This document shows, one piece after another, positions 3,783 to 27,706 of a DNA stretch of 28,208 nucleotides. The notes under the pieces are model-generated. The model was not told where the DNA came from. It worked only from the letters and a program-made list of their open reading frames with translations, and made no database searches. The position numbers were made by a program, and so were the translations under genes. Origin of the DNA: Eledone cirrhosa (taxonomy: Eukaryota); contig CAXHJY010000496.1 of assembly GCA_964016885.1 (NCBI GenBank), positions 1 to 28,208 on the forward strand, in the 5' to 3' direction. Numbering within the stretch: the first letter of the stretch is position 1; each line of letters starts with the position of its first letter.

Positions 3783-3840
3783 CGGATCTAGCTGTCGAAA
3801 CGGACGGAGCTCAGCCGTCGGTGTCTTGACTCTTTTCCTA
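3783..3840 (+). mobile_element. Fold-back family A, single arm (subfamily A2)
   Basis: GGATCTAGCTGTCGAAACGGACGGAGCTCAGCCGTCGG...GACTCTTTTCCTA then (TA)n. Matches the right arm of the copy at 23794-23993. Confidence 0.85.
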
Positions 3841-3859
3841 TATATATATATATATATAG

Positions 3860-5593: not shown

Positions 5594-5734
5594 AGAGTTT
5601 ATATATAGATCAGAAAATCTGATGAGAAGATCGGGTTGAAACCAGGTCTATAGCATTTACATAGATCCTGAGCTACCCAGCTGTGAAACAGACGTAACTT
5701 TGTATAACCAATAAAGGCCATAATGTGAAACCTC

Positions 5735-6469: not shown

Positions 6470-6636
6470 ATGGGAAAAGAGAGGACCCCGACGGCTGACC
6501 TCCGGCCGTTTCGTCAGCTAGATCCGAACAGCCGTCGGGGTCCTGACTCTTATCCTATTACCCACTCTACTACCCTAAGTATTGAGTACTCTGGCATGTT
6601 ATGGTCCACCTGGTTTCTTACCACACTTTCAATGTT
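6470..6636 (+). mobile_element. Fold-back family A (A2), internal deletion in the right arm
   Basis: Left arm GGACCCCGACGGCTG...TTTCGTCAGCTAGATCC, shortened right arm, then the family tail ATTACCCACTCTACTACCCTAAGTATTGAGTACT...CTTACCACA. Preceded by (TA)n. Confidence 0.9.
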
Positions 6637-7350: not shown

Positions 7351-7351
<1 letters not shown>

Positions 7352-7549
7352 ACGAAGGAAATGTGGTAAGGAACCAGGTGGACCATAACGCACCAAAGTA
7401 CTCAATACTTAGGGTAGTAGAGTAGGTAATAGGAACGAGTAGGACCCCGACGGCTGAGCTCAAGCCGTTTCGACGGCTAATTCTGGACATTCGAGTCCAG
7501 AATTAGCCGTCGAAACGGCTTGAGCTCAGCCGTCGGGGTCCTACTCGTT

Positions 7550-7554
<5 letters not shown>
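7351..7554 (-). mobile_element. Fold-back family A (A1), intact copy
   Basis: Perfect 60-bp arms at 7429-7488 and 7495-7554, 6-nt loop, 78-bp unique tail, (TA)n on both sides. Each arm carries the hammerhead 3' half GAAAC-GGC-loop-GCC-GTC-GGGGT. Confidence 0.92.
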
Positions 7555-7584
<30 letters not shown>

Positions 7585-7589
<5 letters not shown>

Positions 7590-7792
7590 AAAAGAGTCAG
7601 GGCCCCGACGGCTGAGCTCCGGCCGTTTTGACAGCTAGATCCGAACTGTTTGGATCTAGATGTCGAAACGACCGAAGCTCGGCTGTCAGGGTCCTGACTC
7701 TTTTCCTATTACCCACTCTACTATCCTAAGTGTCGAGTACTCTGCTGCGTTATGGTCCACCTGGAATCTTACCACACCTTCTTTCTTTCTTT
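7585..7792 (+). mobile_element. Fold-back family A (A2), diverged full copy
   Basis: Imperfect palindrome centred on GATCCGAACTGTTTGGATC, followed by the family tail. (TA)n on both sides. Confidence 0.9.
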
Positions 7793-14309: not shown

Positions 14310-14496
14310 AACGAAGGATGTGCGGTAAGGAACCAGGTGGACCATAGCGCTCCAGAGTACTCATTACTTTGGGTAGTAGAGTGGGTAATAGGTAAAGAGT
14401 CAGAACCCCGACGGCAGAGCTCAAGCCGTTTCGACAGCGATTTAGGTCCAGAAATAGCTGTCGAAACGGCTTGAGCTCTACCGTCTTGACTCTTTT

Positions 14497-14500
<4 letters not shown>
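14310..14500 (-). mobile_element. Fold-back family A (A3)
   Basis: Tail on the left, palindrome centred on GATTTAGGTCCAGAAAT, (TA)n on the right. Confidence 0.9.
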
Positions 14501-20580: not shown

Positions 20581-20756
20581 TCTCTGGTATGGCGGCTAGA
20601 CAAGCACTAGCATGGTTGACTGGGTTTTACCTTTATGCATATGTTTCAATAGAATTGGAATGTCGTGAAGTGGGAGAGTCTATTTAGATAGTTTAAAATC
20701 TATTTTCTTTGTGCTTTCGACTGAGCATATGAATATATATATATATATATATATAT

Positions 20757-20889
20757 GAACGAGTAGGACCCCGACGGCTGAGCTCAAGCCGGCGGGGTCC
20801 TACTCGTTCCTATTACCCACTCTACTACCCTAAGTATTGAGTACTTTGGTGCGTTATGGTCCACCTGGTTCCTTACCACATTTCCTTCG

Positions 20890-20891
<2 letters not shown>
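20757..20891 (+). mobile_element. Fold-back family A (A1), hairpin centre deleted
   Basis: Tail nearly identical to that of the 7351 and 27511 copies. The palindrome is collapsed at CAAGCCG|GCGGGG. Confidence 0.92.
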
Positions 20892-20919
<28 letters not shown>

Positions 20920-20921
<2 letters not shown>

Positions 20922-21095
20922 CACAACGGAATTGTGGTAAGGAACCAGATGGACCATAACGTACCAGAGTACTCAAATTTTAGGGTAGTAGAGTGGGAAA
21001 TAGGAAAAAGTATGAGCCCGACGGCAGAGCTCAAGCCGTTTCGACGGCTAATTCTGTCCAGAAATAGCCGACGAAACGGCTTGAACTCTGCCGTC
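20920..21095 (-). mobile_element. Fold-back family A (A3), short arm ends at GTC
   Basis: Tail on the left, palindrome centred on TTCTGTCCAGAA. The right arm stops at CTGCCGTC. Confidence 0.9.
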
Positions 21096-23793: not shown

Positions 23794-23992
23794 TAAAAGA
23801 TTCAAGGACCCCGATGGCTGAGCTCCGGCCGTTTCGACAGCTAGATCCGAAAAGTTTGGATCTAGCTGTCGAAACGGATGGAGCTCAGCCGTCGGGGTCC
23901 TGACACTTTTCCTATTACCAACTCTACTACTCTAACTATCGAGTACCCTGGTGCGTTATGGTCCATCTGGTTCCTTACCACACTTTCTTTGT

Positions 23993-23993
<1 letters not shown>
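23794..23993 (+). mobile_element. Fold-back family A (A2), full copy
   Basis: Palindrome centred on GATCCGAAAAGTTTGGATC, family tail, (TA)n on both sides. Confidence 0.92.
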
Positions 23994-24984: not shown

Positions 24985-25300
24985 TTATTAAAATAACAGA
25001 TTAAAGTTTAAGCAAAGAATCGCTGCTTTCACCCTTAACGGGATCTTCAGAAGATCCCGTTAAGGGTGAAAGCAGCGATTCTTTGCCAATAAGAAACACA
25101 CGCACCAGTTGCTTTCACTTCAACTTATTTTAATAAATTTATAAATTTAGGAATTTATAAATTTCCGGTTGGTTGGTTCCACAACCAGATGGTTGTTTAT
25201 ATATTGTCAAAGTTCTTTCGTCACACATTCTGTGACCTCTTCAGTGACTGGGGATTCTTTTCTTTGTTTTTGTGCCTCTCCTTTGTTCTGTCCTACGCCA
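24985..25300 (+). mobile_element. Fold-back element (family D) with perfect 37-bp palindrome
   Basis: Arms at 25012-25048 and 25050-25086 with a 1-nt spacer. The minus strand across the centre reads CTGAAGA-TCCC-GTTAA-GGGT-GAAAG. The downstream region is homologous to 15652-15835. Confidence 0.8.
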
Positions 25301-25478: not shown

Positions 25479-25645
25479 CCCAACTCTTACACGGGAGGAC
25501 GCCGTCCGTGCAATTTTTGCTCGGAGGAAACTTTACAAATGCTGTTTTCGACGGACCAACTCCTAAACAAGAAAGACAAACTGGTAACTGCATGCAAACA
25601 CAGATTGCCTAGGACTTACCTCGCCCTCAAACCCCATAATGACCC
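25479..25645 (+). mobile_element. Penelope-like element ORF C-terminal remnant (end of GIY-YIG endonuclease region)
   Basis: Manual translation PNSYTGGRRPCNFCSEETLQMLFSTDQLLNKKDKLVTACKHRLPRTYL matches, from memory, the PLE C-terminal pattern Y-x5-C-x-LC-xx-EK...LLNKRxEL-xxx-C-R/K-H. No start codon, and it is absent from the ORF track. Confidence 0.72.
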
Positions 25646-25678
25646 GGGGGGTGGGGGGTGGGGGTGGGGGGTGGGGGG
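25646..25678 (+). repeat. (G5-6T)n tract, G-quadruplex-capable
   Basis: Five G-runs separated by single T residues. Confidence 0.8.
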
Positions 25679-26079
25679 TTAGACAAGGGCTGTAACACCC
25701 CATTTGCCGACTTTGTAATGGGTAACCCCTGCTTGCAAAGGTAGACGTAAGATCTTCTTTTATATCATTTTATCGTTTCCTCTATATTTCCTTCTTCCCC
25801 CATCCCTTCCTAGTCCTTCCAACCCAGTCCAGTCCTCCTTCTTTGTCGTCGTCCTTTTCACTTTCTCGCCCACCCGAGGCAGCCCCTCGGTCCTTTGTAG
25901 CCTCAGTACCCCCACCCCCTATTCTATGATAGAATTGGCCGACTCCGCTTTTTATAGCAGATGTGATAGACCCCATATACTTGCTGTCTTATCCAATGAC
26001 TGCCCCATTTCCGTGCTTTCTACATTTCTTAGTGGTATCTCTGCTTTAATTTCTCGTATATCAGTATTTATTGGGGGGG

Positions 26080-26332
26080 GGGGGATTCTGAATTAATTTT
26101 CCGCATCAAATTTTTCATATACCTCGTACGAGCATTTATGTAGTTTGCACTAGAATTATGTATCGTAACGGCACCCTTAGAGATAGTATTAGTATTCATT
26201 TTCGGGATTCTGAATTATTATTTCGTATTGGTTTATTTTTTGCACTGGGTGATTGCTAACCTTGTGCCTAGAGTAGAAACAATTATTTCGTATTAGTTTC
26301 GGGACTCTGAATTATTATTTCGTGGTAGTTTC
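26080..26332. repeat. Dispersed direct repeat GGGA(T/C)TCTGAATTATTATTTCGT x3 with an embedded SINE tail
   Basis: Copies near 26082, 26204 and 26301. A SINE 3' piece TGCACTGGGTGATTGCTAACCTTGTGCC lies at 26241-26287. Confidence 0.7.
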
Positions 26333-26775
26333 TTTAGTATTTTGGCCCCCCACCCCCACTTGTTGACCTGTCACCGTAAGATATACTCGGTTGATTACTA
26401 CTAACTCTTAAAATGGTCTCATTACAATTCCGTCCCACCTAGTAAACTTTTCTATAGTTTAGCAGTTCCAGTGAGAGACTTGATGGCTGTCGTTAGGGAA
26501 TAGTAACCAGAAATTGTTTTTCTATATTTTTAACATTCTTGGTATTCTTCTATATATTTACTCCATATCCCCCCTCCCTAGTATACTTGCTTGACCTCCT
26601 GCCCTTCTGTAGTTGGTACTATAAACGCACGACTAGGTTTCCTCCACTCCCTCTCTCTTCTACTGGCAGGTTCAGCTACCTCTTCCTTCCACAAATTGCC
26701 ATGATAGAATTATGTGTCTCAACAACAAACTTTTGACCAATCCTTGTGACAATCACTTTTACCATATATAGAATT

Positions 26776-26863
26776 ACCCCCTGAGAAGCTCGGCTATTCA
26801 TATACCAGGATAAAAATGTTCATTTAGTCCAGAACTAGCCGTCGGGGTCCTACTCGTTCCTAT
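26776..26863 (+). mobile_element. Family A-related copy retaining the hammerhead 5' half
   Basis: ACCCC-CTGAGAA-GCTCGGCTATTC...GTCCAGAACTAGCCGTC-GGGGTCCTACTCGTTCCTA then (TA)n. The GAAAC segment between the two AGCCGTC repeats is missing. Confidence 0.7.
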
Positions 26864-26867
26864 ATAC

Positions 26868-27510: not shown

Positions 27511-27706
27511 AACGAAGGCAATGTGGTAAGGAACCAGGTGGACCATAACGCACCAAAGTACTCAATACTTAGGGTAGTAGAGTGGGTAATAGGAACGAGT
27601 AGGACCCCGAAGGCTGAGCTCAAGCCGTTTCGACGGCTAATTCTGGACTCAGAATTAGCCGTCGAAACGGCTTGAGCTCAGCCTTCGGGGTCTTACTTGT
27701 TCCTAT
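27511..27706 (-). mobile_element. Fold-back family A (A1), full copy
   Basis: Nearly identical to 7351-7554, with a shorter apex (TTCTGGACTCAGAA). (TA)n on both sides. Confidence 0.92.

Follow-up and report, generated by a model that had tools for sequence, protein, structure and literature searches.

The window, by which we mean the whole 28,208-nt stretch of Eledone cirrhosa DNA that was analyzed, carries a repeat at all ten places where a preliminary description had put it. In the focal copy a one-sided, 77-nt tail (7352-7428, minus strand) is followed by a tailed arm (7429-7488, minus strand), a few junction bases (7489-7493), and a tail-less arm (7494-7554, plus strand), with (TA)n runs on either side; arms of about 60 bp and a single tail had been correctly described. 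Positions within the repeat are numbered here with the G of the hammerhead GAAA as 0; cutting after GTC gives a 3′ product from +23, the tail-less end lies at +42, and the tailed end at +119. The tail (+43 to +119) ends at (TA)n. The tailed arm starts at -17 in loop II and continues through the 3′ strand of stem II, GAAA, stem III, the GTC cut site, and the 3′ strand of stem I; the tail-less arm covers -18 to +42 and ends in TTCCTAT at (TA)n. The final junction base is a G; it takes the place of the T that precedes the A at -18 in the source. The two 60-bp arms show no mismatches around a 6-nt spacer, and the predicted fold of the 126-nt hairpin has an energy of -129.4 kcal/mol, compared with -37.4 ± 3.4 for 100 mononucleotide shuffles.

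As had been proposed, each arm contains the 3′ half of a type I hammerhead ribozyme. What stands opposite the sense arm is its own reverse complement and not the native 5′ strand of stem II, a point against snap-back on stem II. An Rfam scan of the window listed no hammerhead, only sub-threshold miRNA-type hairpins, among 150 of 229 matches.

Hairpin copies on the minus strand also lie at 27512-27706 (tailed arm to -18, tail-less arm from -14, one C common to both), at 14311-14498 (an older subfamily), and at 20921-21095 (tail-less arm shortened). On the plus strand are a copy that has lost its centre back to stem III (20753-20890) and three copies of subfamily B, at 23794-23993, 7585-7776 (decayed), and 6470-6628 (tailed arm partly deleted). 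The picture of a ten-copy hairpin element needs amending: the feature at 3783-3841 (plus strand, subfamily B) is a lone tail-less arm, the copies at 6470 and 20757 have deleted centres, and what was noted at 26776 is no hairpin but the terminus of a 1.38-kb copy. This last copy (25480-26864, plus strand) is long, 5′-truncated, and tail-less, and comprises an open reading frame (ORF) C-terminus (25482-25646; the last 55 codons, 94.5% identity), a 3′ UTR, and a ribozyme 5′ half (CTGAGAA near 26782); the part with GAAA and stem III has been lost between two GCCGTC repeats. Neighboring hairpins at 20753-21095, and likewise at 7351-7776, share a single (TA)n run, and new copies appear to land in (TA)n left beside older ones. 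Hammerhead-like motifs at 25220-25300 (CTGAAGA..GAAA, minus strand near 25240) and 5619-5645 (CTGATGA..GAAA near 5619) are probably the ends of further families of Penelope-like elements (PLEs).

Parent element and hammerhead ribozyme

The hairpins are probably the shortest head-to-head insertions of an autonomous, 3.53-kb PLE with Hydra-clade motifs, whose terminal repeat is the hairpin repeat. The PLE origin suggested earlier was borne out by long copies that combine the ribozyme 5′ half with a reverse transcriptase (RT) and GIY-YIG frame; the predicted link to such an ORF was found, with a core that is mostly TTGANAA or CTGAGAA, not the CTGANGA anticipated. Upstream of the repeat the parent has a 1.28-kb 3′ UTR and the RT plus GIY-YIG frame in a single ORF. 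The three tandem arrays that were read have units of 3,531-3,546 bp with 99.8-100% identity, and a frame of 717-719 aa is present in six of seven whole array units (the remaining one stops at 222). The genome has 349 tail-to-ORF junctions, marking the tandem or partial-tandem units that form pseudo-LTRs; such units, a single ORF with telomerase-like RT and C-terminal GIY-YIG, and inverted 5′-truncated copies with a one-sided tail are the traits of EN+ PLEs, and the parent shows all of them. A pattern search returned 1,563 long copies of subfamily A3, and subfamilies A1, A2, A3, and B all possess long copies.

Among 8,000 candidates scored, 2,049 are homologues of the 717-aa protein; VIY..YIG, R, H, E, and N are conserved across 116 homologues, and the top homologue carries PF01541. 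Neither the ORF nor its profile had a significant match in sequence searches of Pfam, NCBIfam, and PDB. An alignment-based model of the protein (pLDDT 93.5) has telomerase TERT (3du5) as its best Foldseek match (E 3e-8). Motifs of the Hydra clade are found at 117 (DKT), 35 (RLRWR), 572 (CNCPDRSIC), 670 (CNLC), and 698 (CKH), the likeness being judged from motif descriptions and from comparison by eye with the N-terminal regions of Hydra proteins in the supplement to Craig et al. (2021). The clade's preference for (TA)n is reflected in the flanks of the copies.

Arrays of more than four near-identical, intact units (L234-L237; G000:C1, 437.20 Mb and 91.48 Mb), in which an A-U pair of ribozyme stem II has been restored, are compatible with a circular or multimeric RNA template. 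Elsewhere on the same contig (L206/L207; G000:C1:27009493-27010094) a hairpin adjoins the ORF start and is followed, some 115 bp of ORF-side sequence later, by a second repeat that begins at -21; this looks like a template jump following run-off.

Stems I-III fold in natural copies around a core with a GUC cut site, as in a type I hammerhead; the stem II domain is extended and measures about 55 nt. The CTGANGA pattern has 145 matches, with whole ribozymes in nine of the first 100 listed, and ACCCC followed by CTGANGA has none, because the parent core has A8. A loosened core pattern recovers 1,725 whole ribozymes (G8 in none of the first 100 listed), unlike the canonical CUGANGA hammerhead of the Hydra clade. 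When 80 whole copies were compared across subfamilies, all 28 A2 cores had U3-A8; the 37 A1 cores comprised 21 with mismatched C3.A8, 13 with U3-A8, two with C3-G8, and one other; and nine of ten A3 cores read TTGANAA with a variable N. A single copy of subfamily B and several A copies have C3-G8, and N7 is variable. U3-A8 is a covariation described for PLEs (PMC4209133), and breaking the 3-8 pair abolishes cleavage in anole Poseidon, in the experiments cited from PMC11167929; the C3.A8 ribozyme of A1 would accordingly be expected to be weak. Arms that begin near -20 to -10 and are fused to the hammerhead 5′ half of other families, one of them over a shared CAGAAT, were seen among fusions selected by the search pattern (L022, L025, L028, L040, and L042).

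Pairing of tailed and tail-less arms

Exact patterns run against the 3.0-Gb genome found at least 73,009 arms and at least 15,482 hairpins with both 15-bp cores intact, and reversed-pattern controls found 0; matches listed are the first along contigs C1-C22, not random draws. Hairpins in such numbers sow thousands of near-perfect palindromes across the genome. Perfect palindromes are a known class of artefact, and an assembly or library fold-back, or else a DNA transposon (MITE or Helentron), might be suspected on that ground. We regard this as barely credible: the ends at +42 and +119 are fixed, divergence of the arms is copy-specific, and opposite-strand joints in the fold-back zone are present in contigs of run X4 and of run X5, the latter from a second organism and study. 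Linkage of the repeat to, and its continuity into, the PLE's RT frame refutes both possibilities.

Almost every hairpin has one tailed and one tail-less arm. Of 41 hairpins chosen by centre from the first 40 stretches listed, 39 follow this rule, as do 19 of 20 long head-to-head pairs (the exception has three arms) and 19 of 20 hairpins ending at the ribozyme cut site. Either arm may be the longer: among 56 hairpins it was the tailed arm in 26 and the tail-less arm in 23, with seven equal. In two insertions (L200 and L202) the ORF sits in the tail-less arm, and tail-less arms of about 2.8-3.3 kb and 16 kb oppose tailed arms of about 230-280 bp (16 kb versus 281 bp in one array). Fold-back of a tailed cDNA cannot yield a longer tail-less arm, and a tail-less cDNA cannot yield a tail; we therefore infer that the arms are separate RT products.

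The preliminary description had proposed, as one of two readings, that one cDNA snaps back on stem II and self-primes the second arm. Arms do resemble each other more within a hairpin than between hairpins (median one versus four differences in 36 nt), certain junctions, such as that of 27512-27706, can be drawn as a fold-back with a 4-nt loop, and later deletion of the centre could blur arm lengths. Snap-back in loop II is nevertheless improbable, given that the mirror junction with the longer tail-less arm is equally common (23 versus 26; also L273), that 490 hairpins have both arms reaching -18 around a one-base spacer, and that the arms of one hairpin (L324) belong to different subtypes; for long insertions such as L200, L202, and the 16-kb array it is contradicted. 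The same fold-back point had also been claimed for the intact copies. Instead there is a zone, with arms mostly starting 10-23 nt before the G of GAAA, and 56 typed hairpins gave 56 different junction keys, a count that is inflated by point mutations, certain junctions being recurrent. Some junctions (L015, L061, L132, and others) contain iterated templated insertions and long T-runs, like those of polymerase-theta end-joining or RT stutter.

This heterogeneity, together with a one-tail architecture that spans insertions from about 120 bp to 16 kb, speaks against the earlier suggestion of a non-autonomous family copied as a unit; the companion suggestion, a stereotyped abortive product, was upheld. 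A non-autonomous PLE family or retrozyme, for which unit copying, an inherited structure, and a whole ribozyme are expected, was likewise rejected on the heterogeneous junctions and half ribozyme. It might still be supposed that the arms stem from a SINE-like non-autonomous family with its own internal promoter, mobilized in trans, and the excess of short arms over long copies (73,009 versus 1,725 and 1,563 matches with the two long-copy patterns) and the maximum of contig depth on the terminal repeat would suit it. Such a family could coexist with the explanation favored here if the hairpin were rebuilt at each insertion. We give it little chance, since junctions are not inherited as a unit, all four subfamilies have long copies, and ORF-linked 5′ repeats stop in the same zone as the short arms.

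Where the arms end

Arm starts are concentrated at -23 to -10. Taken from the first 100 entries in a list of 6,125, 92 tailed A1 arms were placed: 66 begin between -26 and -1, six between -63 and -27, 13 further upstream, and seven at or beyond 0; the stop is leaky, with 19 of the 92 extending past -27. In A2, 23 of 30 arms start at -26 to -1. The 30 ORF-linked 5′ repeats include six that start at -21 to -3, two at +22/+23, three further down, four at -60 to -300, 13 that are long, and two that were unaligned.

The 490 hairpins with both arms at the A of TTAGT (-18) have C or G as the spacer base in 45 of the first 50 listed and A or T in five, where the template would give A or T; for A3 at -23 the count is C/G 11 versus A/T 1 (among 50 listed). 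By analogy with L1 and SVA, in which an untemplated G marks a capped 5′ end (PMC4859970), an untemplated C or G at -18 would be as expected from an RNA cap. Start sites of PLEs have been located in the pseudo-LTR (PMC8557442), and TTAGT has been seen at an initiator position (PMC10695386). We would place the putative 5′ ends of the transcript at -18 and -22/-23 on the strength of these sequence features. Other junctions are less uniform. Single arms adjoining (TA)n had G in six, C in five, and A in one (12 informative of 44 places), and a broader junction class had C in 16, G in ten, and T in three (hand count). All C-added ends come after T in the cDNA, and the cut-site end comes after C; the choice of base could therefore reflect the neighboring sequence and not a cap. 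A recurrent A3 junction (24 of 50) reads as templated out to -29, identically to the source, and was dropped as evidence of a cap. Two other candidates were considered: a 3′ splice site at TTTAG was rejected, as many arms keep TTTAG, and a lariat branch at -22 explains neither the -18 peak nor the added C.

A second (TA)n-associated PLE family has a hairpin at 24985-25095 in the window, 1,467 hairpins in all, and a one-sided tail of about 85 nt; its ribozyme 5′ half is degenerate, and its ORF start resembles that of the first family (L301). Its arms stop at the same TTAGT motif, with C added in 18, T in five, and G in two (hand count, 50 of the 1,467 hairpins).

A second stop lies at the hammerhead cut site, at or near which (+23) 231 mini-hairpins fold. 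In the 69 that have a one-base spacer the preference is reversed, with A or T in 41 and C or G in nine of the first 50 listed, where the template would give C or G (Fisher p 1.5e-13 against the -18 class). The first 50 of the 231 include 37 of A2, 11 of A1, and two intermediates; with 6,558 A2 and 6,125 A1 tailed arms as denominators A2 is enriched (p 2.7e-4), a comparison confounded by subfamily age and by the 13 of 37 A1 cores that are U3-A8. In two copies (L357 and L233) the sequence starts at the cut site, crosses the tail, and continues into the ORF. Taken at the level of sequence, this pattern suggests that the compensated (U3-A8) ribozyme cuts in vivo.

The stop near -20 could, under the same two-primer integration, be a place where RT pauses because loop II is structured or bound by protein, much as at the template boundary of telomerase, instead of an RNA 5′ end. 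The stop does fall on the 3′ strand of the predicted apical helix of the extended stem II, T-runs ahead of TTAGTCC in several junctions suggest stutter, the RT is TERT-like, and single arms show no clear G. We nonetheless think a pause unlikely: the bases added at -18 and at the cut site are sharply different, starts sit on an A after a pyrimidine, the second family stops at TTAGT in other sequence, and arrays of more than four units cross the site repeatedly.

Integration and relation to known elements

Run-off at RNA ends is, on balance, the explanation that we favor for the whole data set and consider likely. A promoter in the terminal repeat would initiate capped transcripts at two A residues, the one in TTAGT (-18) and another 4-5 nt further upstream; both starts would fall inside ribozyme loop II, so that of the hammerhead the front of the RNA would contain the 3′ half alone. 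Acting probably as a dimer, on the model put forward for anole Poseidon, the enzyme would cut both strands of a (TA)n target, and both cut ends would prime RT near the front of the RNA, from +119 at one end and +42 at the other. With the 5′ repeat as template, both cDNAs, of about 137 and 60 nt, would run off the likely capped 5′ end; end-joining, through microhomology or with small insertions, would then link them head to head. RT starting on a downstream repeat would produce long arms and arrays, and ribozyme-cut RNA would produce mini-hairpins of 97 + 20 nt.

Inverted truncated copies, tails, and PLE hammerheads are already known. The closest relatives, Hydra-clade PLEs such as Hydra-1_Obim and Penelope-n_HM, share with the parent a single ORF with RT followed by GIY-YIG, the motifs DKT and RxRW, a CxCx5C linker, CxxC and CxH around conserved E and N, (TA)n targets, and a type I hammerhead near the 3′ end, as set out in the sections of Craig et al. 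(2021; PMC8557442) drawn on here. According to the same sections they are generally shorter than 3 kb, whereas the parent has 3.53 kb with its 1.28-kb 3′ UTR, and all ribozymes listed there have CTGANGA and short loops, in contrast to the U3-A8 or C3.A8 and the stem II of about 55 nt that predominate here; the ribozyme of Hydra-1_Obim is unlike the parent's. Head-to-head arms, a tail at one end, and partial tandems are described for PLE insertion units (Fig. 2 legend of PMC8557442; PMC4209133), and opposite-strand ribozyme pairs as well as the U3-A8 covariation have been noted in Schistosoma (PMC4209133). The one-sided tails given in PMC8557442 are 30-40 bp, against 77 nt here. The present insertions further differ from the known units, as these sources describe them, in that truncation is piled at two places instead of being random, one-tail asymmetry reaches about 95%, and the shortest class is the commonest.

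The Poseidon element of Anolis carolinensis (Frangieh et al. 2024; PMC11167929) offers the nearest biochemical parallel. The in vitro results cited from that paper include two RT start sites bounding a tail, cutting and extension of both strands, an AT-rich target, a product length limited by the RNA 5′ end, and a dimer model. The arm asymmetry agrees with this scheme and, by analogy, would add that the two sites are paired one of each. The Poseidon start sites lie in the ORF, whereas those proposed here lie upstream of it; in the cited experiments the two sites did not differ in strand preference, and reads terminating at the cut site were not found, in contrast to the genomic class that ends there. 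In L1 twin priming, too, two target ends prime on the RNA, but non-overlapping parts are inverted, while both arms here copy the same stretch (relevant part of PMC4859970).

Our search of the literature, which covered open papers (subscription papers, Repbase, and Dfam being outside it), found no report of PLE hairpins terminated at a cap or cut site, of strict one-tail pairing, or of subfamily-resolved cut-site products. The mode of PLE integration, the reason for inverted, tailed insertions, and hammerhead cutting in vivo are named as open questions in the parts of PMC8557442 and PMC11167929 consulted. For these questions the family supplies tens of thousands of natural integration products, which point to transcription start inside the ribozyme, show one RT start site used per target end, and give subfamily-resolved hints, at the sequence level, of in vivo cleavage.

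Retroviral minus-strand strong-stop DNA is a short cDNA that runs off a capped 5′ end; it is tRNA-primed and not integrated. The hairpins would share with it the run-off from a capped end and differ in being integrated. More speculatively, PLEs might replicate by such a retrovirus-like strong-stop, an idea to which we give less than even weight. An asymmetric RT dimer would then start at two fixed sites of the 5′ repeat on a capped RNA; with the promoter inside the hammerhead, the front ribozyme would be born split and incapable of cutting by itself; a full-length copy would require either transfer to the 3′ repeat or a template that is multimeric or circular; the more than 15,000 hairpins would be failed transfers; and subfamilies would tune ribozyme activity (C3-G8, U3-A8, and C3.A8). 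If this is true, in vivo cleavage by each subfamily has left a record in the genome that can be counted. The young arrays with an intact 717-aa frame make the claims on transcription start, paired RT start sites, and cleavage testable in vitro.

L1-like ORF pairs (L088) and other Hydra-like PLE frames (L083, L093, and L295) were seen near the copies examined.
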